Of a stretch of 64,000 bases of DNA, positions 5,695-58,445 are shown one piece after another. The position numbers and the translations under genes were made by a program. This DNA is from a virus, in the IMG/VR virus record IMGVR_UViG_3300021171_000007, positions 15,612 through 79,611 of that record, one strand, 5' to 3'. Each line of letters opens with the position of its first letter. Position 1 is the first letter of the stretch. The notes below the pieces were generated by a model. The model searched no databases. It was not told the DNA's origin and was given only the letters and a program-made list of their open reading frames with translations.

Positions 5695-7206
5695 TTACCA
5701 AAGTTCTGAATCGCCCAGAGAAGAACATACTCCGTAGCAAAAGCAATCAACCAAATCGTCTTCTTGATCTGGCACGCCAACATTAAAACTGTGAACTTGT
5801 TTAATGAGATGATTAGCGTGTCTTTGTTTAAAATCCACAGTCTTGTTATAAGCTTGAACAGAATACTTTACCTTGCCAACGGAAACGTATCCACTAGCAT
5901 TGAGAGCACGCGGTTGTTTGCCAAGTTGTACCAACTTAGCGTCAACACCAGTTGCCAAAAGGTTGCGTCGATTACATTGTTGCAAAAGGACAATTCCAGA
6001 GCCCTTTTCTTCAATTACTGTACCAATCGACCCACGCCGCGCCCGACAAGCTCTGGCATATTCCTCAAGTTTTAAGTAAATGCCAGGTATCCAATCTATC
6101 AACAAATCAGCAGGAACTTGCAAAATATCATAATCTAAAATAGTAAGTGGCGCCGCAAAACGCTCGTTCAAAGCCCAATAGATTACTGCGGTGGCATCGT
6201 GTTTCGCATCAGCCTTAATGCCAGTATCAATAGTGGCAAAGACGCAATCAGTCCACTCAGGAAAGTTGACAGGCAATCCGTCAACAAGTAAGTCCTTTTC
6301 GAGGAAAAACGTACCACCAGGCGGCTGCGGATTTTGTTGATAGAGAGACTCAAAATCTCTAATCCCCAAGATAGTTCGCTTTCGCTCCAGAGCTTCTGCG
6401 TTTTCCCAACCAGGCCAAAGAGCCTCACCTACTTTACGTGGAGGATCAAGAGGATCATTAGCAGTTGCAAATGCTGGCAGATTTATAACAGTCCACTGAT
6501 CTCCGCCCTTATCCATTTCATTTAAAAGCATTCCACCTAAATCTTCTAAATGCCATCGTGTCTGGATAAGGATAATTCTAGCATCTGGCTTAAGACGTGT
6601 GACAAGATCTGATTTATACCATTCGTAAGTTTTTGTCCTAACGGTTTCTGATTCAGCATCCTCTCTGGATTTAACTGGATCATCAATAATTGCGAGATCA
6701 GCGCGTCTTCCAGTAATAGCGCCTCCCACACCTGCCGCGTAATATTCACCTCCGTTTGTGGTTTCCCATCGAGAAGCTGCTCTGTTTGATTCATCTAGCG
6801 AATAGCCTAAAATTGGTGACTTCAACAGTATCTTGTTACGCACCTTACGGCCAAAACGCTCAGCAAGCTCTCCTGTATGTGAACAACCAATTACAGAGGA
6901 ACGCGGAAACTTTTTAAACCAATACGGCGGTAACAATTCAGATGTATAAGTAGATTTGGCGCTCCCAGGAGGAGCAAATATCATTAAGCGATCAATTTCA
7001 CCTTTTATAACTTTTTCTAGGGCTTTGATAATGTGTCTATGATGCGGTGCTGGTTCAAAATTAAAATCATGTACGCACTCTTCACACCAAGAAAGTAAGT
7101 CGGTTTGACAAGAACGACGCCAAGCTTCAGCGCGATATTTAAGAATTTGACGCTTACGTATTGTCTCAAATTGGGATGGTTGTGAAGGCTCGAATCCCAT
7201 TGACAC
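5695..7206 (-). CDS. terL: Terminase large subunit
   Basis: Walker A APPGSAKS, Walker B IIDDP, IQTRWH, LYQQNP and C-terminal DDLVD nuclease motif. Confidence 0.95.
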   Translation of the reverse strand: MSMGFEPSQPSQFETIRKRQILKYRAEAWRRSCQTDLLSWCEECVHDFNFEPAPHHRHIIKALEKVIKGEIDRLMIFAPPGSAKSTYTSELLPPYWFKKFPRSSVIGCSHTGELAERFGRKVRNKILLKSPILGYSLDESNRAASRWETTNGGEYYAAGVGGAITGRRADLAIIDDPVKSREDAESETVRTKTYEWYKSDLVTRLKPDARIILIQTRWHLEDLGGMLLNEMDKGGDQWTVINLPAFATANDPLDPPRKVGEALWPGWENAEALERKRTILGIRDFESLYQQNPQPPGGTFFLEKDLLVDGLPVNFPEWTDCVFATIDTGIKADAKHDATAVIYWALNERFAAPLTILDYDILQVPADLLIDWIPGIYLKLEEYARACRARRGSIGTVIEEKGSGIVLLQQCNRRNLLATGVDAKLVQLGKQPRALNASGYVSVGKVKYSVQAYNKTVDFKQRHANHLIKQVHSFNVGVPDQEDDLVDCFCYGVCSSLGDSELW

Positions 7207-7225
7207 AGTTAGAAGCGCCCAAGTG

Positions 7226-11810: not shown

Positions 11811-12413
11811 ATGATGATGGTAAGTGATTTGTTTGACGAACACGGAAAACGAAAGATGCGCCCAGGTAGTGGAGTGATACCGAAGCCATTTGACAAAGTA
11901 GAACTTGAAATTGTGCGTGCTGATATGGCTGAATTAATAGCCAGAGAAAAAGAAAATGGCGATTGGGAAAAATGGCTTGAATCGCAGCGCCCAATTTCGC
12001 AACTGCGGTCGCTTGACCGCGATTTACTTACAATCTCAGTTACACTGACAGTTGATGGCCACGTCATTCCTACGCCTGTTGGTCTTCCAGACGCAATCAT
12101 GGAAGAGATAAATGACAGATACCGCAACCGTTCAACGCACCGTCTGGAGCGCCAAGAAATGCCCAGCCGCATCGTAGCAATGGAAGCTGATCGAGAAAGA
12201 TTGGAGAGAATTCGATTTTACACAGGTCAAATTACTGCTGAGATCTTCGCTCATTATGTAGGCCGCCCACCACAGAATGATGATCTTATGCGCGCCAATT
12301 GTAATCTAGCCGGCCAATTAGGACATTCCGCCTGCGGTTGGTGCGGAAGCTGCCAACGGCCCCGATTCATATGCAACCACCACGTGATATCACCCAATGG
12401 ACCAATGAGATGA
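11811..12413 (+). CDS. Hypothetical protein with C-terminal Cys/His cluster
   Basis: ANC...GHSACGWCGSCQRPRFIC. Confidence 0.65.
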   Translation: MMMVSDLFDEHGKRKMRPGSGVIPKPFDKVELEIVRADMAELIAREKENGDWEKWLESQRPISQLRSLDRDLLTISVTLTVDGHVIPTPVGLPDAIMEEINDRYRNRSTHRLERQEMPSRIVAMEADRERLERIRFYTGQITAEIFAHYVGRPPQNDDLMRANCNLAGQLGHSACGWCGSCQRPRFICNHHVISPNGPMR

Positions 12414-12730
12414 AAACCAAAAAATGGAAGAAGCATATGCTTCAACTCATGAGGATCGCCCTGATTCCAGGTCCACCAGGCCCTAGAGGCGCCACTGGGC
12501 CCCAAGGTCCACAAGGTGTTCCAGGTCAGCAAGGCCCCATCGATTCATCAAACTATGACCTTGCTGAGCAGATCGCTTGGTTGAAGAATGAACTAGCACA
12601 GTTGAAAATTGAAATTGACAGCTCAAGGAGGATTAGTGATGAAAATCAAAAACTATCAACCTCAAAACGAGGAAGAAGCCGTAGGATGGTTGATGGAAGA
12701 GTGCTGCGAGGTGGTAATATCAATCGGTAG
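12410..12730 (+). CDS. Short collagen-repeat/coiled-coil protein
   Basis: GPPGPRGATGPQGPQGVPGQQGP followed by heptads; ATGA overlap at 12410. Confidence 0.55.
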   Translation: MKTKKWKKHMLQLMRIALIPGPPGPRGATGPQGPQGVPGQQGPIDSSNYDLAEQIAWLKNELAQLKIEIDSSRRISDENQKLSTSKRGRSRRMVDGRVLRGGNINR

Positions 12731-12857: not shown

Positions 12858-13024
12858 TTAGATGCGCCCAGTGCAAGAAAGAGTTTGCTCCAAAATTTCC
12901 ACAACATAGATTTTGTTCAAAAGACTGTGGCACAAGATTCCATAGATACGCACGAATGATGAAACGCGATCGTAAATGGATTTTGATTAATGGGCCTAGA
13001 TCTGTTCAATCTGATTCTACGTGA
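12854..13024 (+). CDS. Small treble-clef Zn-finger protein
   Basis: CAQC...FCSKDC. Confidence 0.6.
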   Translation: MIRCAQCKKEFAPKFPQHRFCSKDCGTRFHRYARMMKRDRKWILINGPRSVQSDST

Positions 13025-13474
13025 ACGGATTGTAACTCATTATGATTCCACAGTGGGGGGTTGTAGAAATCAAGATGAGTGAAAATTTGATGCTAGTCCG
13101 GTGACGGTCACCACCAGTGGGTCGCGTGAAACAGGTAAAACAGAAGATCGACCCCGACCTTCGGCTGGCCAGAAAATCGACAGAGAAGGGCAAGAGATAG
13201 GGATAGGGTCTAGCGTTTTAGGCTATGTGCATAGCGGACGCATGTCCGAGGCCGCCTGTCAGCCTCCTAATGCGATTTAAACGCATATCGCGGACTAGGG
13301 CATAACGGACGCGAGAAACGAAACATTCGCGAACATTACAAAATGTTAATGTGTTCGCAATGTTTTGTAATGTTGCAAACGTCGTTTACGTGTATTGTTC
13401 CCTTTGCACCGCGCTTTTGCGGTGCGGGCGGACGCTACGTGCGCCGCTCTTGTCTAGCAAAAAGGACTAAACAA

Positions 13475-13972
13475 ATGTCGAACGAAAAGCCCGCAAAGGT
13501 TGCGGACGTTCTCGCGCAAGTTAGCGCGGATAATGCGGAAGTGCGCGCTAGCGTGCTTGCGCTAGTGCAGGCTATGCCGCAAGCGATTGCGGACGCGGTT
13601 AAGCAGGCGTTGCCTGTCCCGACCGTGCGCGCGCCGCGAACCGCTCGCGTTGCGGTGCAGATGTCTCCTGCGGACGCGGACGCCGCAATGTGCGGTTTTA
13701 ACAAGAAAGGTCCGCGCCGCGATTTCTTTCTTGCTGTGCGCGAATTGCCGAGCGGCACATATTCGCTTGCGGAAACGTTTCCGGGCGTTTCGCTTGCGGA
13801 GGCGGGCGTTGTTTATCGTCGCCTTAGCGGACAACGCACGGGCGGACGCGTTACGGAAAGCTTTTTCGAGCGGTTAGGCTTCGAAATCGCAATCGTTAAC
13901 GAAGTGCGCGGGAAGGCCGAAATCGGCATTACGCGTTACACGGACGCGAACAAGACGGGCGAAACCGCCTAA
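13475..13972 (+). CDS. Orphan protein in a GC-rich, YCA/TGR-free island (candidate immediate-early gene)
   Basis: AAGGA SD, ATG 13475, own terminator; no TCA, CCA, TGA or TGG anywhere in the gene. Confidence 0.8.
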   Translation: MSNEKPAKVADVLAQVSADNAEVRASVLALVQAMPQAIADAVKQALPVPTVRAPRTARVAVQMSPADADAAMCGFNKKGPRRDFFLAVRELPSGTYSLAETFPGVSLAEAGVVYRRLSGQRTGGRVTESFFERLGFEIAIVNEVRGKAEIGITRYTDANKTGETA

Positions 13973-13981
13973 CGCGCAATC

Positions 13982-14010
13982 GAGCGGACGCGACAAGCGT
14001 CCGCTCTTTT
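13982..14010 (+). terminator. Intrinsic terminator
   Basis: GAGCGGACGC-gacaa-GCGTCCGCTC-TTTT. Confidence 0.8.
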
Positions 14011-14135
14011 CTTGCCCTCTAACTTCAGGACCAACAAAACCATGTTTATCATCATCGCACATCGTGGCCTCAACTGGCGCTGCTTCCGTGGCCCCAAGCG
14101 GACGTACTTCCTCTGGATCCACGAAGGAAATTGAA

Positions 14136-14267
14136 ATGGCCAAGATCATTCCCGTCATTGGGCTGCTGATTGCCCTCGCGTTTGGCCTCATAGCTGTCGG
14201 CCACCACAACTACGTCACCCAGGTCAACGACTATCTGGACCATGGCACTCCTGCCACAAAACCATAA
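14136..14267 (+). CDS. Small membrane protein
   Basis: AAGGA SD; MAKIIPVIGLLIALAFGLIAVG hydrophobic segment. Confidence 0.6.
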   Translation: MAKIIPVIGLLIALAFGLIAVGHHNYVTQVNDYLDHGTPATKP

Positions 14268-14269
14268 TC

Positions 14270-14293
14270 AATGGGGCGCAAGCCCCATTTTTT
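14270..14293 (+). terminator. Intrinsic terminator
   Basis: AATGGGGC-gcaa-GCCCCATT-TTTT. Confidence 0.85.
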
Positions 14294-14612
14294 CATGTCC
14301 AGTTCGTTCATCCCATGAATTGAATCAATCTCATGAATTGAGTTTGGTGATGATGATATCATGACATTCATCCCATGAATTGAATATAGATCATAATTCA
14401 TTCATCATGGTCATTTTCATTCATTGGCTGGTAACTTCATGAGTGCCATTGGCTGATGGATGCGCACCAACGTGGATTGATGATGGTGACTTCATAGCAA
14501 TCATTGATTGATGGTTGCGCCCAGATCATGGGATGATACCAATCAACTACCATTACCACTCACCATTGACTGAATCATTACTGATGACTTACCATTGATT
14601 CATGGAGCGCCC
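14293..14612. repeat. Non-coding patch saturated with TCA/CCA/TGA/TGG
   Basis: 12 and 14 such triplets in the two 60-nt lines counted; 19-nt direct repeat at 14307-25 and 14367-85. Confidence 0.75.
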
Positions 14613-14614
14613 AG

Positions 14615-14870
14615 GGACTGTTACCAGTCCTGTTAGTCCTGTTATTTTTCATATAAAATAGGACAAAGAAAGTGCAACGATTACAAGGACTTACGGCGAC
14701 CAGTCCTGTTAGTCCTGTTTGTCCTATTGGTATTTCCATATGCGAGGCGTCGTTTTGCTACCTCTTCCCGACCACTGACCGGACAGCCTCCATGGCCGGC
14801 CTAACCCCTTGTAATCGTTAAGGAATTTCTGTCCTCCTTGTGGTTTTCAGAAAACAGGACAGGACAGAAC
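14615..14870. repeat. Iteron-like repeats, candidate replication origin
   Basis: Tandem GTCCTGTT at 14627-43 and 14703-19, inverted AACAGGACAGGAC at 14853-65, and a 13-bp inverted repeat AACGATTACAAGG/CCTTGTAATCGTT; lies just downstream of the helicase. Confidence 0.6.
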
Positions 14871-14903
14871 CACAGATCATTAATGTAGATTGTTACCATT
14901 GAC

Positions 14904-16388
14904 TCAAGCATCTGGCTTATACAAACTGAAATCAAAATCAGTATTGCCGCGTAAAACTGACCATTGACCATCTTCTGTTGACCATTGAACCTTACCACCC
15001 AACTTACTTTCCAATGATCTTCTGACATCGGGACATAATGGAACTTCATATCCATTGCGTCTATTATCACGACTGTCTCTAATCTTGATATTCTCAACTA
15101 CCATATCAGGTATCAAATCTGCTAATTGGCGACCAAATTTTCTTTCTGATAACTGGTGGCGCTTCCCAGCTGGAGAATGATTATAGTCATTCAATAGCAG
15201 AGCTTTGATTACTTGCACTTTGCCATCCATCAATTCACCATAAGGCATTTCTTTGGAGTCTACAATACTATATAGCCATTCTTGGACTCCATTCATACTC
15301 TGTTGTTTCTGGAATATTAATTCTTCAGTAACAGGAGCTATTCTGAGATCAATATCATATTTATGATTGAGGAAATAATGCATGAGCGCGGCATTGCCGC
15401 CATTTTTAAACCAATTGTCAAGTTGGGCAAAGTATTTAGTATCACGTCTCTTATCTTCTGATGCATGAAGTGCGAATATGCGCCTAGCTTTGAATCCAGC
15501 GCTGACTAGCCATTCTGGATTACCAGTTATAAATAAATGAAGATGATTTGGAACTTCGTAAACTGGCACATATTTATCATTAATAGGTAATGTGGGACCA
15601 GATATGATATCTTTTAATAATGATTCATCTTTCTTACTACCAGCCCAAACTGCCTCTTCCAAATGGAGTAATATACAGTTCTTCAATTGCCCGTTATGAT
15701 CGCCAAATATGTATGCTGGATTTGATGTTTTAAATGTATATGGGCGCATCAATTCAGATAATTTCTCCACAAAGAATGATTTGCCTACACCCTCATCTCC
15801 ACGTATTACTACGGCTATGGCTGGTTTCAAATGAGGCTCTTGGAACATTTGGGAAATGAGTGCAATTAGATAATTGAAATTGTCTACATTTCCACAACAA
15901 ATGATATTATTCATTAAATCTAAGAATGGTATGACATCGCCCTCTTTTGATTCAATTCTATATCCTTTCCATAAATTATATTTATCATTTCTATTACCTA
16001 AATATGATGGATCGAAATCAAATCCGTATTTATAATGGCGACGTTCTGAACTGGCGAACCATACATCCGTAATTGGCACATATTTTGGATCACCACCTTC
16101 GGTTGGCATTATCATAATACGTCTATCTGAATAACCAGCAACCAAATCTTTCTTATCCATTATTTCTAATGTGCCATCTGGATTCTCTCTGACTACTTTG
16201 AATCGCCCATTTAAATATATTGTAAAATGATCTTCATTTAATTCTAATATGGCATCTTTCTTTGGATCGCCAGTTCTGGTATATTCTCGTCTGGGCGCAC
16301 CATGTTGATTTTGTTGATATCTTGGATCCTCAGTAAGTTTCTTAATACGTTCCAAATCTGGATATAGGTCGTCATCATCGTCAGCCAT
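14904..16388 (-). CDS. SF3 (D5/NrS-1-type, DUF5906-like) helicase without a primase domain
   Basis: GDEGVGKS Walker A, LHLEEA Walker B, FITGN motif C, ARRIF arginine finger. Confidence 0.85.
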   Translation of the reverse strand: MADDDDDLYPDLERIKKLTEDPRYQQNQHGAPRREYTRTGDPKKDAILELNEDHFTIYLNGRFKVVRENPDGTLEIMDKKDLVAGYSDRRIMIMPTEGGDPKYVPITDVWFASSERRHYKYGFDFDPSYLGNRNDKYNLWKGYRIESKEGDVIPFLDLMNNIICCGNVDNFNYLIALISQMFQEPHLKPAIAVVIRGDEGVGKSFFVEKLSELMRPYTFKTSNPAYIFGDHNGQLKNCILLHLEEAVWAGSKKDESLLKDIISGPTLPINDKYVPVYEVPNHLHLFITGNPEWLVSAGFKARRIFALHASEDKRRDTKYFAQLDNWFKNGGNAALMHYFLNHKYDIDLRIAPVTEELIFQKQQSMNGVQEWLYSIVDSKEMPYGELMDGKVQVIKALLLNDYNHSPAGKRHQLSERKFGRQLADLIPDMVVENIKIRDSRDNRRNGYEVPLCPDVRRSLESKLGGKVQWSTEDGQWSVLRGNTDFDFSLYKPDA

Positions 16389-17221: not shown

Positions 17222-17858
17222 TCCAGTACACAATATCGACCCTGGCCCCACTGTTATGTGGGAAGAGGATTATGAGCGCCTCAAAAAGCAACAGCGATTG
17301 GATGCTGAGATTGAGCGCGTCAGGAAGGCCAAGGAAGATGAGATCAATCGTGAGCGCTTCAAAGAGAATCAAAAGATCAAAGATAAAATTGAATACACAG
17401 AAGAATTGGCAACAGAGATTTGTGAGAGGATCAGTGCTGGTGAGCTATTGATCAACGTGTGCAAAGATAGTCATATGCCAACTGTGCGCCGCTGTTCAGC
17501 ATGGCTGAAGTCAGAAGCTGACTTCCAAGCACTGTATAATATGGCCATTGCAGACCGATTGACTATATTTGAGGAAGAAGTGATCTCAATTGCTGATGAT
17601 GCAACAAGAGATATGAGGGAAATTATTAAGAGTGGTAAAACCATTAAAGTCCAAGATGCTGAAGTCATTGCGCGAGCCAAACTCAGAGTTGAGGTGCGCT
17701 TCAGGCATTTGAAGGCTGGACGTCCTGGTAAATGGGGTGACAGCACTACTCTCATCACTAAATCAGAAGATGAAAATATTGCTGAGATGCCATTGTCTGA
17801 GCTGGAAAAGAAGATCGCTGAGTTGGAACATAAAGATCGGGTGGTGAAAGCAGTTTGA
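17214..17858 (+). CDS. terS: Terminase small subunit (Sf6 gp1-like) with N-terminal extension
   Basis: YTEELATEICERISAGE...MPT...WL...IADD...ARAKLRVEVR...PGKWGD. Confidence 0.8.
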   Translation: MTDPVHNIDPGPTVMWEEDYERLKKQQRLDAEIERVRKAKEDEINRERFKENQKIKDKIEYTEELATEICERISAGELLINVCKDSHMPTVRRCSAWLKSEADFQALYNMAIADRLTIFEEEVISIADDATRDMREIIKSGKTIKVQDAEVIARAKLRVEVRFRHLKAGRPGKWGDSTTLITKSEDENIAEMPLSELEKKIAELEHKDRVVKAV

Positions 17859-17867
17859 TTCATCATT

Positions 17868-17893
17868 CGTTACGCAGTTACGCAGTTACGTAG
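17868..17893. repeat. Tandem GTTACG(C/T)A x3
   Basis: 8-nt period; AGTTACGTAG is the exact inverse of 19154-19163. Confidence 0.7.
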
Positions 17894-17976
17894 CCTATCC
17901 CGCTCGTTTATTTCTGACACAATAGGATCAATCATTGGCTGATTGATCCATGTCATAGTCATCATTATTATGTGAC

Positions 17977-18005
17977 TTGCATCATCAATAGAACTGTGCT
18001 ATAAT
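17977..18005 (+). promoter_or_regulatory. Sigma70-type promoter
   Basis: TTGCAT-17 nt (ending TGTGC)-TATAAT. Confidence 0.7.
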
Positions 18006-18119: not shown

Positions 18120-19151
18120 ATGTCATTGCTAATGTCACTAATACAAAACGGCTCAAATCAAGAAGATCCCAGGACAAATCTTCTTGAGTACACTGCTGGT
18201 ACCATCGCTAAGCATATTGATGCGCCAGCGCACTACCTGGTTGGATTAGCTCTATGGGCGCTACATACCCATGTGTATTCCACCTATAGCAAGACTCCAA
18301 GATTAGCTATCTTGAGCCCAGTTCCTAACTGTGGCAAGAGTACAGTTTTGGAGATACTAGCTGCAATGGCTTGGAATCCTAAACGAGTAATAGACCCAAC
18401 TGAAGCCGCTCTATTTCGTTTGGCAAGCAATCATACAATGCTGCTAGATGAAGTAGATAACATGTCAATATCAAGAGGCATGAAGTCTGTCTTAAATGAA
18501 GGAGACAGATTGGGTGGTAGTGTTATAAGAACTGGAAAGGACGGTGAAGTTATATCCTATCCAGTTTTTGCTCCTCTTGCACTTGCTGGTATTGGTAGGT
18601 TGCCAGCAACTCTTATGACTCGGTCAATAGTTATAAGACTCCATCGCTCAGATAAAGCAATGGATAGATTCTCAGCAAGAGAGCAGCACTTTGCACCACA
18701 TTTCTATAATTGGGGTGATCAGGTAGTTCTTAATTCTGATCCACAAATGCCGCCTCAGTTAGTAGGTCGTGACGCAGATAAATGGAGATCGCTCGTAGCT
18801 ATTGGAGACTCGTTTGGTCGAGGCGAGATAGCGAGAGAGGTGGCGCTCAAGTTCGTAACTGAGAGCGTTAATCCAGATGTCAAGGAGCTAATACTGCGTG
18901 ATACACAGAGAGTGTTCAATAGAGCTAAAGTCACTAAGATCTCTGTGAAGAGAATGTACGAGAAGCTTATTGAGGACAAAGAAGGTGAACACGAAGTAGA
19001 TTATGACGGCCAAAAAATAACAAAAAGAAAAGTTGGAGACACATTACGTGATTTCCAAATATACAGTCGTATCGAAAGGCCAGAAAAAGGCGAGCCAGTT
19101 AGGTATTGGCTCAGAGACGATTTTGAAGAAATGTGGAAAAGGTATGCCTAG
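18120..19151 (+). CDS. DUF3631-type P-loop ATPase/helicase-like replication protein
   Basis: PRLAILSPVPNCGKST, TEAALFR, LLDEVD, LALAGIG and TRSIVIRL; GAGGAG SD. Confidence 0.75.
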   Translation: MSLLMSLIQNGSNQEDPRTNLLEYTAGTIAKHIDAPAHYLVGLALWALHTHVYSTYSKTPRLAILSPVPNCGKSTVLEILAAMAWNPKRVIDPTEAALFRLASNHTMLLDEVDNMSISRGMKSVLNEGDRLGGSVIRTGKDGEVISYPVFAPLALAGIGRLPATLMTRSIVIRLHRSDKAMDRFSAREQHFAPHFYNWGDQVVLNSDPQMPPQLVGRDADKWRSLVAIGDSFGRGEIAREVALKFVTESVNPDVKELILRDTQRVFNRAKVTKISVKRMYEKLIEDKEGEHEVDYDGQKITKRKVGDTLRDFQIYSRIERPEKGEPVRYWLRDDFEEMWKRYA

Positions 19152-19153
19152 CA

Positions 19154-19180
19154 CTACGTAACTACGTTACAGCGTTACAG
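19154..19180. repeat. GTAAC/GTTAC repeats downstream of DUF3631 gene
   Basis: CTACGTAACTACGTTACAGCGTTACAG. Confidence 0.6.
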
Positions 19181-19366
19181 TGAGTCCCAATAAAGATGGG
19201 TGCGCCTCATTTTATCGAGTTATTTCAGCTTATGACAATCAATCGCCAATCAGTGAATGAATAATGGCTGAATTATGTAGTGAATTCAATATTTGAAGTT
19301 TCATGGGTCAGTGATTATCATGGTATTTTCTCTGTATGTTCCCTTTTTACCCCCTATTTGTTCCCC

Positions 19367-19395
19367 TTGCTTTCCTTCCGCGAACGTGCTACGGT
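19367..19395 (+). promoter_or_regulatory. Sigma70-type promoter of the ribozyme-containing early operon
   Basis: TTGCTT-17 nt (ending TGC)-TACGGT. Confidence 0.7.
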
Positions 19396-19399
19396 TCTT

Positions 19400-19640
19400 C
19401 TCCCGCAGAGGAAACTGCGGCGCAGCCTGAGACTTGGCGAAGAGCGAAATAAACCCGGCAAAATGACTCGCCGAGCGGTTAAGTAAGTGGTTAGGCAGTC
19501 TCTCCTCAAAGGGCAAAAAGCACCAGGGAGAAAAACCTGCCATTTGCGTCGTTTCGGCGGACGGAAATATCCGCCTGAAATAACAACACAGAGCACAGCG
19601 TTCTGAGAAGGATGCTGTGCTCGCTGGTGTTATTTCTAGC
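19400..19640 (+). ncRNA. Structured 5' leader RNA
   Basis: Stems 19403-08/19415-20, 19434-40/19468-74, and a 14-bp hairpin 19591-622 with GAGA loop extended by 19577-85/19628-36. Confidence 0.55.
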
Positions 19641-37414: not shown

Positions 37415-38230
37415 ATGAACGAAGTGCAAACAACGACCCAAGGTCAACTAGCTTTAGATGATGAACTCTTATCGCTAGGAGGGATGGGAACTGAGAATGT
37501 AAAGTCCAAAGACGTTCTTATTCCACGCCTAGTCATTCTGCAAGCACTGTCTCCTCAATTGAACAAAAAGAAAGCAGAATACATTGAGGGTGCAGAGATC
37601 GGTGATTTCTGCAATGTGGCAACTGGTGACATTTACAAGGAATCAGTTCTCGTTGTTCCTTGCCATTTTACTACGGATTATATTGAATGGACAAAGAACC
37701 GCGGTGGCTTAGCAGCAAACCACGGAGACGATGCTTCAATTTTGAAGCACACTGTCAAGAACGACAAGAACGAGAACGTATTGACGAATGGTAACATTGT
37801 CCAAGAAACGGCACAATGGTATTGCCTTCTGCAAGATGGCGCCTCATGGTCAAGAATTTTCTTTCCGCTTAAGGCAACCAACCTAAAGCACTCAAGAAAA
37901 TGGCTTACATTATGCAGAGCAGAAGTGGTACAACTTCCGAATAACGAACTTTGGAAGCCGCCCCTTTTTTGGCGATCTTGGAAGTTGGATATTATCAGTG
38001 ATGGAAACGACCAAGGTGATTGGTACACATTTAGGCCAGTTAAGGGCGAATTAATAATGGATCTTGATCCAAGTAAGCAACTCATTAGACTGTGCAAGTC
38101 ATTTTACGAAGATATTCGTACCAACGTTGTTCGTCCTGATATTGAAACAACTCAAGACGAAACTGGTCCTATTATTGAAGGGAGAGCAAATCCAAAAACA
38201 GATCCAACCGAAAAGGATATACCATTCTAA
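37415..38230 (+). CDS. Putative ssDNA-binding/recombination protein
   Basis: DVLIPRLVILQALSPQ; SSB-like C-terminal DIPF. Confidence 0.55.
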   Translation: MNEVQTTTQGQLALDDELLSLGGMGTENVKSKDVLIPRLVILQALSPQLNKKKAEYIEGAEIGDFCNVATGDIYKESVLVVPCHFTTDYIEWTKNRGGLAANHGDDASILKHTVKNDKNENVLTNGNIVQETAQWYCLLQDGASWSRIFFPLKATNLKHSRKWLTLCRAEVVQLPNNELWKPPLFWRSWKLDIISDGNDQGDWYTFRPVKGELIMDLDPSKQLIRLCKSFYEDIRTNVVRPDIETTQDETGPIIEGRANPKTDPTEKDIPF

Positions 38231-51415: not shown

Positions 51416-51511
51416 TAACTTTCCGTAATGTTTCATGAATAATTGGGAGTGCGTGTACAGCTCTCAGTTATGCGGCGTACAGTGCGTCCACCCAGATCTG
51501 GAGAGCAACAA

Positions 51512-52165
51512 ATGAAAGCTATGCTACTTGCTGGAGCAGCCATTCTTGGGCTTATCGCTCCGGCTTATGCCACGCTGCAAATCGAAGTGTTCGACAATGG
51601 GACGTTGATCGACAACATCACAGGCATTACAACTGGCGCCGCGTCGCTCACTACCAATGATGCGAACTTCGCCAATATCACGATCAACGCCCAGGGCGCT
51701 CCAATCCTGCCGAACGCCGATCTGTCAAGCGTCACTCTAGACGCCACAGCAGCGTTAGGCTTTACTGGCTCGCACACGTTGACGTTCGATGTTCTACAAA
51801 GTGCCATCAGCGGACTCGGCAACACGCTCTCAACCTTCACGGTCAACGGCCTTACCAACGATCCTGGCCCGACGACTGAGAGCACGTTCGCAGATGGTGC
51901 GCTGCTCGCCACGCACACGTTTCCAGTGGCGCTACTCGACGGGTCTTTTGGACCTGTCTCATCGGCAACAGGTCCGTTCACCTCGGATGAAGTTCAATTC
52001 GCTGTGGACTTCACTGCACCGCGCCAATCGTTCGGCGGGTCAGTCCAGTTGACGACCAATGTTCCTGAGCCTTCGACTTGGGCTATGCTTGTCGCCGGCT
52101 TTGGCCTTCTCGCGTTTCTGGGCGTGCGTCGGCAGCGCAAGGATCGGCTCAGCGTAGCGATCTGA
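51512..52165 (+). CDS. Secreted PEP-CTERM (PEPxxWA) exosortase-target protein
   Basis: Signal peptide MKAMLLAGAAILGLIAPAYA; C-terminal VPEPSTWAMLVAGFGLLAFLGVRRQRK. Confidence 0.9.
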   Translation: MKAMLLAGAAILGLIAPAYATLQIEVFDNGTLIDNITGITTGAASLTTNDANFANITINAQGAPILPNADLSSVTLDATAALGFTGSHTLTFDVLQSAISGLGNTLSTFTVNGLTNDPGPTTESTFADGALLATHTFPVALLDGSFGPVSSATGPFTSDEVQFAVDFTAPRQSFGGSVQLTTNVPEPSTWAMLVAGFGLLAFLGVRRQRKDRLSVAI

Positions 52166-56879: not shown

Positions 56880-58445
56880 TTATCTTGCTTCGAGTTCAGA
56901 AACGCGCGCTGCTAATTCCTTAACAGCATTAATGAGAGCAAAAGTTAAATCTGACGCATTTAAATGGCGAAAATCATTCACTTCTACACCATCGATAAAA
57001 CCAGATTTTTTACTTATTATACCAGGAAAAGATATTTCTGCTTCTTGAGCGACTAATCCAACAAAGGATCGTCTTTCCTTAGCAAAATGATAATGCATTG
57101 AGGTTGGATAAGGTGCTTCTGTCACTAATTTTTCAGCAGGAATAGGCGCATCCGGATTTTCTGGATCAATATCTTCAACGCGAAGTGCACTCTTATTCGC
57201 GGTTGGCGTATCATTACCTTTATAGATATAGTTCACAGGTCTAAGTTGAATAATTTCCTCAAGTCCAATTGTGTAATCACTTTCAATTGTTTTAATGCGA
57301 TCATCGGATAATATAGTCCAAGTAGTTAAACCGGCTTGATAGCCATGTCCAACTTGAAGAAGCATATTAGCCCCGCTTTGAGGGCTGAGGCTAATATTGG
57401 CACCAACGCCTATGTTGGAACTGTAAGGTGGACAAGTGAGGTAAGAGTATGATCCACCATCCCAATAAACTTGACCACCACCATTTCCAAATGATCCAAC
57501 ACCACCCCAAGTAAAAGCACCAGTAACACTAGCACTTTGGCCAACACCAAGTGTGCCATTAATAGTTGCATAGCTAATAGTTGCAGTACCAGATATAGTT
57601 GCATTGCTAGTGACACTAAGACTTCCACTAACAGTAACTGGTTGACTACTCGTAGGATTAAGATTAATTCCACCACCAACTAATAATCCAATATTAGAAC
57701 CACTATATTGATCAGATAAAGTTGTAGCACCAGTAGAAACATTAAAATAAAATGCTGTACGATTGGTAGAACCATCTGTAAGCCAAATAACTGGATTAGG
57801 TCCACCTGCCGCGCCAGGAGAAATAACAATTTGTCCACCAGGAATACTTACAGCACCATTTAGAGAAAGTGCTCCGGTTACTGTGCCACCTGCTAATGGC
57901 AAATAACTAGCAAGTGATGTTTGTGCCGCTCGTGATGTGTCTGTTGGATGTCTATGATCTGCTCGTGCCCAAGTTGTTCCTGTACCAATAGCCGCTGTTC
58001 CATCCATTAGCGGCGTTGTAGATGATGCAACAGGAACGCTGGTAGTTAACGCATAAGGCGCAAGTGAAGTTGTCCAATCCGTAATATCTGTATGAGTAAG
58101 ATGTACCCAACCTCCAGTATTGCGGCCATAAGTGGAACTATCTTGTGGCGCATCACCAATTCCTGCACCAGCATTAACTACAACAACCCATTGAGATGAA
58201 TTACCATCATTATAATAAACATAAAGTTGTCCAACAGCACTATTAAACCATAATGCTCCGGCTACTGGATTAATGGGAGGATTATCACTAACTGTGATTG
58301 AGGCACCACCTCCACCAGGAGTGCCTCCACCTCCACCAGTAAGAGCAGACATATACCATTTAACACCGTCCCAAACCCAAGTCACGCCAGCGGCTGTGAA
58401 GGACGAACCTACGACCGGATTTGAAGGAAAATCAATAGCGGCCAA
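56880..58445 (-). CDS. Tail fibre with C-terminal intramolecular chaperone (peptidase S74-like)
   Basis: SDDRIKT...LRPVNY...GLVAQE...LINAVKEL. Confidence 0.85.
   Translation of the reverse strand: MAAIDFPSNPVVGSSFTAAGVTWVWDGVKWYMSALTGGGGGTPGGGGASITVSDNPPINPVAGALWFNSAVGQLYVYYNDGNSSQWVVVVNAGAGIGDAPQDSSTYGRNTGGWVHLTHTDITDWTTSLAPYALTTSVPVASSTTPLMDGTAAIGTGTTWARADHRHPTDTSRAAQTSLASYLPLAGGTVTGALSLNGAVSIPGGQIVISPGAAGGPNPVIWLTDGSTNRTAFYFNVSTGATTLSDQYSGSNIGLLVGGGINLNPTSSQPVTVSGSLSVTSNATISGTATISYATINGTLGVGQSASVTGAFTWGGVGSFGNGGGQVYWDGGSYSYLTCPPYSSNIGVGANISLSPQSGANMLLQVGHGYQAGLTTWTILSDDRIKTIESDYTIGLEEIIQLRPVNYIYKGNDTPTANKSALRVEDIDPENPDAPIPAEKLVTEAPYPTSMHYHFAKERRSFVGLVAQEAEISFPGIISKKSGFIDGVEVNDFRHLNASDLTFALINAVKELAARVSELEAR

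Follow-up and report, generated by a model that had tools for sequence, protein, structure and literature searches.

The contig IMGVR_UViG_3300021171_000007 (79,611 bp; completeness 100% by CheckV) represents an uncultured phage from a soil metagenome. Here we describe a 64,000-nucleotide (nt) stretch of it, bases 15612–79611 of the contig and hereafter the window, in whose coordinates positions are given, and within it a short non-coding patch (14293–14612) saturated with the triplet YCA and its reverse complement TGR. The patch sits between one triplet-free transcription unit and the iteron/inverted-repeat core of a probable origin of replication.

From left to right, the locus comprises an island cassette free of YCA/TGR (13262–14024, + strand), made up of an upstream region, a gene (13475–13972) and a terminator (13982–14006); a small variable open reading frame (ORF; 14137–14267, + strand), recognized by reading the sequence, for a 43-residue hydrophobic peptide; an intrinsic terminator (14270–14289, + strand, from a terminator scan) that forms the left border of the patch; the patch itself, delimited by its density and closed frames; a triplet-poor core of iterons and inverted repeats (14612–14880), delimited by repeat searches; and, convergent on the patch, a superfamily 3 (SF3) helicase gene of the DUF5906/D5-P4-like type (14904–16388, − strand), assigned through PHROG primase families and Pfam DUF5906. 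We refer to the complete genome of this phage as G000, to related contigs sharing the spacing trait described below as G001–G004 (G004, a 75-kb genome, is 94% complete; G003 is a fragment covering 25% of its genome), and to the contigs of relatives by L-numbers.

A non-coding patch saturated with YCA/TGR

The genome carries 6,089 YCA and TGR triplets (0.0765 per nt), a mean of 4.6 per 60 nt. In the patch, 66–67 sites fall within 320 nt, or 12.6 per 60 nt, a 2.7-fold excess over the genome mean in a block that abuts the iteron/inverted-repeat core; the 12–14 triplets per 60 nt reported by a first-pass annotation of the sequence are thus borne out (320-nt segments of the genome average 24.5 sites with a standard deviation of 4.7; z about 9). 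Segments equalling the patch count make up 0.005–0.03% of the genome, every one of them overlapping the patch, which is also the genome-wide maximum at a shorter scale (27 per 120 nt against 9.2 ± 2.3). The count exceeds what shuffled versions of the patch yield, whether mononucleotide composition (19 ± 3.6 sites) or dinucleotides (47 ± 2.7, maximum 56) are preserved, the latter giving z about 7 for the 66 sites observed. TCA/TGA occurs 44 times where 12 are expected and CCA/TGG 22 times where 12 are expected, while RCA/TGY, the sister class, is under-represented (7 against 20); 90% of CA/TG steps in the patch belong to YCA/TGR, compared with 55% genome-wide, and eight of the genome's 40 YCATGR palindromes lie inside it. 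Other intergenic regions hold about 3–12 sites per 100 nt (most 5–8) against 20 in the patch. The density is therefore not a default of non-coding DNA, an explanation that we rejected on this ground.

The patch had been described as non-coding, and so it proves: there are 4–13 stops in each of the six frames, in the window and in two relatives alike, and the longest open stretches are not homologous, which led us to reject a protein-coding patch. A tandem repeat was likewise rejected, with no tandem array found by Tandem Repeats Finder, as was a structured RNA or single-stranded DNA element, Rfam giving only a sub-threshold chance match (22.8 bits against 45) and folding being no stronger than in shuffles (z −0.09). 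Short coding regions and unconserved low-complexity sequence, the two outcomes that the annotation had set against its own proposal, both fail, the frames being closed and the density conserved among relatives.

Several repeat families are recognizable within the patch. The 19-nt direct repeat noted earlier is present as TTCATCCCATGAATTGAAT (family D4; copies at 14307 and 14367, 60 nt apart, spanning 14307–14394 on the + strand). The 11-mer YCATKRANTGA occurs in five same-strand copies (14313, 14331, 14373, 14501 and 14563; 14313–14573, + strand), that is, five of its six matches in the window; the relatives' patches contain about three to four copies in L002 (three by regular expression, a fourth by eye) and none in L107. 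Repeat searches also returned family D3, a 37-nt unit in two copies 55 nt apart, each with a TGCGC end (14429–14520, + strand), and TNACCATTGA, in five direct copies (families D2/D5; 14560–14988, + strand) that bracket the iteron core, two in the patch (14560, 14589) and three beyond the core (14893, 14958, 14979). GCGC(A/C)CCA words stand at 14464–14471, 14507–14516 and 14606–14614, and L107 and L002 have them at comparable relative positions; GCGC is frequent throughout the genome (324 copies).

A search for equivalent patches in relatives, which the annotation had recommended, recovered them in three further lineages (L107/G004, L002=L003/G002 and L004), in the same place and at 18–20 sites per 100 nt. 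In L002 and L003, whose island protein is 71% identical, the depleted island comes before a patch that reaches 26 sites per 120 nt. In L107/G004, with a TerS-like protein 89% identical, a 623-nt gap precedes 29 sites per 120 nt (z 8.4), gap and patch being the minimum and maximum of this 75-kb genome. L004 carries a truncated copy with 25 per 120 nt. In three diverged relatives, then, the triplet-free island and the saturated patch are adjacent and are again the genome-wide minimum and maximum (island gaps in relatives are 623 nt, or 396, 175 and 117 nt). The terminator hairpin at the border of the patch recurs in L002, L003 and L107, and an IMG/VR scan with the terminator word returned one unrelated phage, L139, without a patch. 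As the patch-bearing lineages are related, the co-occurrence of island and patch represents an inherited arrangement that has been maintained rather than one of independent origin.

Density has been conserved through considerable sequence turnover. The patch is 74% identical to that of the window in L107 and 59% in L002, with large indels (divergence 26–50%), yet 57 sites are kept in L107 against 38 ± 4 under neutral substitution, and 61 in L002 against about 25. Site nucleotides are better conserved than non-site nucleotides in both relatives (85% versus 57%, and 70% versus 41%), and relative to the window this excess ranks first of 158 and fourth of 147 triplet-pair classes. Across the patches of three lineages TCA/TGA is enriched at z 4.6–8.2 and CCA/TGG at z 1.9–2.4, while RCA/TGY is depleted in all three (7 against 17–22). 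The proposal that the triplet is positively selected here is supported by these retained sites, and further by the conservation of site nucleotides, the depletion of the sister class and the genome-wide role of the same word (see below). The patch goes with the spacing trait and the island and not with the helicase allele: L002 retains the island and the patch with a helicase only 37% identical, whereas L006, with a 55%-identical helicase and the origin 17-mer, has no trait, island or patch. The patch is thus a genuine non-coding feature without equal in its genome, and selection maintains it.

It is the core, and not the patch, that has the make-up of an iteron-type origin, with direct and inverted repeats beside a helicase gene and conservation among relatives. 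Iterons of the form AGTCCTGTT lie at 14623–14643 and 14699–14728, with inverted copies at 14852–14865, and 27-nt inverted arms (14676–14702 and 14793–14819) carry the conserved 17-mer ACGATTACAAGGACTTA (14676–14692 and, inverted, 14803–14819). This 17-mer is kept in L002 (about 7193–7210), L107, L006 (6611–6632) and L081 (reverse strand, 2212–2228), with a variant in L004; its conservation reaches relatives whose helicases are 55% identical and a trait-positive fragment without a detectable helicase homologue. Of 86 matches in an IMG/VR scan nearly all were due to chance, the real ones being only L022/L053, which are known relatives, and L081. ACGATTACAAGGACTTA is probably a core origin or operator site, and by analogy with P4-type and plasmid origins the core is a probable origin of replication. 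At the helicase loci of two relatives there is modular exchange in the replication module: in L002 (7395–8960) the helicase is only 37% identical to that of the window, yet the TerS-like and DUF3631 proteins are 86% and 79% identical, and in L001/G001 there are two paralogous SF3 helicases, 83% and 40% identical (L001 2776–4203 and 6031–7416).

Even spacing of the triplet across the genome

The triplet that saturates the patch is spaced evenly over the whole genome. In G000 only 26 gaps of at least 39 nt separate successive YCA/TGR sites, where 273 are expected (ratio 0.095), which ranks first among 496 unions of two reverse-complement triplet pairs, the next class standing at 0.60. When synonymous codons were shuffled within 128 ORFs, keeping proteins and codon usage, 209 ± 9.7 such gaps remained, and for gaps of at least 30 nt the corresponding figures are 140 observed and 476 ± 15 shuffled; the scarcity of gaps therefore reflects a constraint at the level of DNA. 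This constraint acts on both strands, and on TCA and CCA, jointly (0.095), as against 0.63–0.69 for each strand and 0.84–1.1 for single triplets. A model of primase sites is disfavoured because the constraint holds for the union of strands and not per strand. Every flanking context of the triplet contributes to the signal. With distance from a site, the probability per nucleotide of encountering the next one climbs from 0.06 (at 3 nt) to 0.20 (at 27 nt), compared with a flat 0.07–0.08 in unrelated contigs, and the scale of the pressure is 15–35 nt.

The same trait marks the related contigs G001 (0.068), G002 (0.17), G003 (0.077) and G004 (0.098), in each of which YCA/TGR again ranks first of 496. 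No such signal is seen in 57 unrelated IMG/VR contigs (median 0.78, minimum 0.54), in the more distant relative L006 (0.65), in G005 (0.56), in the T-hypermodified phage M6 (0.79, rank 47) or in MyoSmar (0.66). One further contig, L110, was dropped as a trait-positive candidate, its ratio of 0.25 over 14 kb becoming 0.56 over the whole 90-kb contig. YCA/TGR is accordingly a clade-wide functional word under DNA-level selection for even spacing.

The long triplet-free gaps that remain fall mostly on promoters, iteron arrays and the island. Long gaps are rarer than chance overall, and it is not their existence that is significant but only their location on promoters and iterons that is informative. 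The promoters concerned have an extended −10 element (TGCTAnnnT) and a −35 box of TTTACA, not TTGACA. Promoters, iterons and the island would have in common that other proteins must read the DNA there. The depleted island remarked upon in the first-pass annotation is real, with no site in 766 nt (13260–14025).

That annotation also listed three smaller dense patches, of which one stands clearly. The stretch 19230–19323 has 17 sites in 94 nt (z 5.0, top 0.36% of windows) and belongs to a secondary dense patch (19189–19323) that abuts a 107-nt triplet-free, promoter-like gap (19324–19427); the whole (19189–19427) adjoins inverted GTTACG-type iterons (19137–19180), and a homologous peak with a 107-nt gap occurs in G004 at 37604–37830, where it is the second-highest peak of the genome. 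The other two, 13020–13130 (z 3.0, top 1%) and 17855–17990 (z 2.2, top 2%), are marginal, some coding stretches, such as 12343–12517 and 57373–57573, being at least as dense. The second of them contains triplet-free GTTACGCAG iterons (17866–17914) followed by a stretch in the vocabulary of the patch (17915–17990), upstream of the DUF3631 gene. Iterons of the GTTACGCAG type (17866–17914 and 19137–19180) flank the DUF3631 gene in inverted orientation, the downstream pair being conserved in G004, and each set is itself triplet-free, with a triplet-rich stretch and a gap resembling a promoter beside it. That dense patches flank depleted stretches is only partly right as a general claim, since most other long triplet-free gaps have ordinary flanks.

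Possible roles of the patch

We propose, with a probability of roughly 0.45, that selection maintains the patch as a dense, non-coding array of the clade's recognition triplet beside the probable origin, and that the patch acts as a high-avidity cis site for a putative factor that reads or writes the triplet. Such a factor could be a covalent DNA mark or a DNA-coating protein, both of which fit the observations equally well. It would have a specificity of 3 nt and act on duplex DNA in either orientation; it would be favoured at short intervals throughout the genome, disfavoured where other proteins read the DNA, and concentrated in the patch, where marking or binding would be several times heavier than elsewhere. 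The consequence may be control of the origin, with initiation coupled to the marked state as at the GATC clusters of oriC and P1 oriR and at P1 pac, or a boundary that separates the freely transcribed island from the origin and its convergent helicase operon, or both.

Even spacing across the genome, removal from the island and accumulation in the patch together point to an undescribed DNA mark or DNA-coating system. We would give somewhat less than even odds to the wider proposition that the clade possesses such a genome-wide mark or protein coat keyed to YCA/TGR: a site every ~30 nt or less on either strand, supplied through synonymous sites, with promoters, iterons and one early cassette kept free and the block at the origin serving as a nucleation, sensing or barrier element. 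No description of this landscape of even spacing, triplet-free island and saturated block was found in searches of the literature.

Parallels exist among known systems, each of them partial. The GATC (Dam) clusters in Escherichia coli oriC and P1 oriR are read by SeqA. There too a genome-wide modification word is concentrated several-fold in a few hundred bp beside initiator-binding repeats, and the cluster acts through avidity for a protein that senses whether the word is modified. The phage described here differs in using a degenerate, non-palindromic triplet found once per 13 nt rather than a 4-mer found once per 250 nt, in showing genome-wide selection for even spacing and exclusion from a whole gene cassette, and in that no methyltransferase or SeqA-like gene was found, the modification being putative. 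Protein p6 of phi29 coats the whole genome at regular intervals, nucleates near origins, and affects initiation and early promoters; the proposed coat would resemble it in regular genome-wide coverage with preferred nucleation sites beside origins, but p6 recognizes bendability rather than a sequence word, and no p6 homologue was identified here. In sopB–sopC and parB–parS, the gene of a DNA-binding protein is followed by a non-coding array of its sites, from which binding can spread. The order of gene and non-coding array is similar here, but no ParA-type ATPase lies near the patch, the repeats are heterogeneous and turn over between relatives, and in those systems the gene of the binding protein is not cleared of a 3-nt word.

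Two further comparisons concern modified phage DNA. P1 pac contains seven TGATCA/G hexamers that carry Dam sites, and its function depends on their modification state (PMC10028697, PMC6449724). Like the array proposed here it is a phage cis site, of 160 bp, built of repeated short words with a modification motif, and its hexamers contain TGA and TCA. It lies inside pacA, however, whereas the patch is intergenic, with a helicase gene and iterons as neighbours and the TerS-like gene 2.6 kb away, and is twice as long with about 66 sites instead of seven. Thymidine hypermodification in M6, ViI and phiW-14 is partial and context-dependent, in TG/TC contexts (PMC6449724, PMC8989533). There, hypermodification follows replication and affects only bases in a short context, and a mark at TGR would fall within a subset of TG, but the 5-hydroxymethyldeoxyuridine (5-hmdU) DNA kinase (5-HMUDK) and the amino acid:DNA transferase (AADT) are absent here, and M6 shows no even-spacing signal for any triplet class.

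Several observations weigh against the reading we favour. The searches for an enzyme of the mark were negative in G000 (100% complete), G001 and G002: there was no match at E ≤ 0.1 to 5-HMUDK (PF18748; positive control M6 gp54, 7.7e-18), none to AADT/aGPT-Pplase (PF18724; positive control M6 gp51, 1.4e-46), and none to TGT/DpdA (PF01702), a family found in 14 of 14 control genomes; the N6_N4 methyltransferase family PF01555 was absent as well, PF02086, PF00145 and PF05869 not having been searched for. Any search for a writer or reader faces mostly ORFan genes. Within the patch, TCA/TGA carries most of the signal and the enrichment of CCA/TGG is modest, and discrete direct-repeat families together with a nearly patch-only 11-mer give the look of an ordinary sequence-specific binding array. 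At 40% GC, the genome average, the patch is not AT-rich and is therefore no classical unwinding element. The measures of site conservation are inflated by alignment bias, and between L107 and L002 the excess is small (+0.11, rank 35). Finally, the trait-positive G003 has the origin 17-mer without an adjacent patch, in a fragment that covers 25% of the genome.

The main rival explanation, which we think rather unlikely, is indeed an ordinary binding-site array, in which one protein recognizes the direct repeats (YCATKRANTGA, TNACCATTGA, the 19-nt and the 37-nt repeats) and triplet richness is a by-product. The protein could be a replication initiator or the winged-helix-like product of the island, the latter in a layout like that of sopB–sopC and parB–parS. 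It would account for the confinement of the 11-mer, all on one strand, for the way TNACCATTGA brackets the iteron core, and for a peak in the spacing YCA-N5-TGR (26 against about 8 expected). The island gene accompanies the patch in three lineages, and the C-terminal domain of the island protein resembles OmpR/PhoB-type winged helices, which bind direct repeats, but the match is weak (Z 5.3, below 8). A by-product sits less well with the facts that density is kept although the L107 patch lacks the 11-mer and the repeat families vary from lineage to lineage, that several unrelated word families are built from one triplet class with RCA/TGY depleted, and that the same triplet is independently under genome-wide selection; an ordinary array also leaves the complete avoidance of a 3-nt word in the neighbouring gene unexplained. 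We consider it improbable that the patch is purely a transcription or replication barrier, an insulator in which the triplets slow host RNA polymerase and the block prevents transcripts of the island and of the operon upstream from running on into the origin and the convergent helicase gene. The patch does begin right after a terminator and between convergent units, and both the promoters, with their TTTACA boxes, and one whole transcription unit exclude the triplet; but every other gene, with a site per 13 nt on average, has to be transcribed all the same, the patch is already preceded by two terminators, and no such block is found at other convergent junctions of the genome.

A packaging or ejection signal of the P1-pac type, at which the small terminase binds clustered motifs and cutting depends on modification state, strikes us as distinctly improbable. 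The resemblance to P1 pac (161 bp, seven TGATCA/G hexamers containing TGA and TCA; PMC10028697) is reinforced by an Sf6-type TerS-like gene that lies 2.6 kb away, displaced from TerL and directly followed by a short stretch in the same vocabulary. The patch, however, is neither inside nor beside that gene or terL (7 kb away), no terminal repeats were found on the contig, and the adjoining conserved iteron/inverted-repeat core and helicase gene point to replication and not to packaging. Very improbable, in our estimate, is a compensatory filler, in which the number of triplets per region is under selection and the patch, together with a milder upstream excess, offsets the deficit of the island. 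The cumulative excess would allow it (about −56 over the island and about +48 over the patch in the window, −60 and +38 in L002, and ~+30 upstream in both), as would the total for 13000–14700 (123 observed, 130 expected), but the variance of window counts at 0.5–3 kb exceeds that of every gap-order shuffle in three genomes, for which reason regional density homeostasis was rejected as a general rule; the ordinary flanks of most other long gaps tell against it too, and at a pressure scale of 15–35 nt a distant cluster cannot compensate. That the patch has no function, being chance low-complexity sequence, a decayed gene or a sponge for a host regulator such as a Fur-box cluster, is barely credible: its vocabulary (ATGA/TCAT, GAT, AAT) is superficially Fur-box-like and short ORFs of 40–56 codons occur, but three to four lineages have kept the density in the face of neutral decay, no tandem repeat is present and no frame is conserved or open. 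The Fur-box sponge in particular was rejected, the best matches to the consensus (12–13 of 19) being no better than in dinucleotide shuffles in three lineages.

If the triplet does mark a modification or a coat, this phage would offer an unusually legible example of how such a system is laid out, with even coverage achieved through synonymous sites, clean windows for protein binding, one unmarked gene and one hyper-marked block at the origin. The even-spacing outlier test would then provide a purely computational signature, independent of chemistry, for sequence-specific DNA marks in uncultured viruses, and would flag an enzyme or binding protein of 3-nt specificity that lies outside current family libraries.

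Neighbouring genes and genome context

The island protein contains no Trp and is rich in codons that contain CG. At least eight homologues at 60–74% identity occur in soil metagenomes, with several divergent alleles co-occurring in the same soil runs; a tblastn search for homologues in phages gave no match. Its predicted structure has a long N-terminal helix and a C-terminal domain that may be winged-helix-like, a weak match (predicted local distance difference test score, pLDDT, 70), and the C-terminal half weakly resembles OmpR/PhoB-type winged helices over 74 residues (root-mean-square deviation 3.3 Å). Foldseek returned nothing from the PDB at E ≤ 0.001, and the ESM Atlas held no informative neighbour. 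Between the terminator of the island and that of the patch lies a moron-like slot occupied by a different small ORF in each lineage (L002 6560–6771; L107 3780–4055).

M6 gp54 (L137, NC_007809, 41685–42248) bears the RefSeq label 'terminase small subunit' and is the experimentally shown 5-hmdU DNA kinase (PF18748; PMC8989533). The TerS-like protein of the phage described here was considered as a possible relative of gp54 and proved unrelated.

Elsewhere the phage encodes head and tail proteins (TerL, portal, tail fibres), a DnaE-type polymerase, DnaQ, an SNF2 helicase, an ATP-dependent ligase, ThyX, a MazZ-like dNTP diphosphohydrolase and a HAD phosphatase, the genes for ThyX, the phosphatase and the nucleotide pyrophosphohydrolase adjoining that for the polymerase. 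A 7-kb portion of the window had no nucleotide match among 50,697 phage records, and DnaE is at most 35% identical to those of cultured phages such as Serratia phage MyoSmar. Most genes are ORFans, and many ORFs belong to no family. A PEP-CTERM motif ends the ORF at 51443–52165 (Pfam, 1.1e-07), which hints at a Gram-negative host with an exosortase system.

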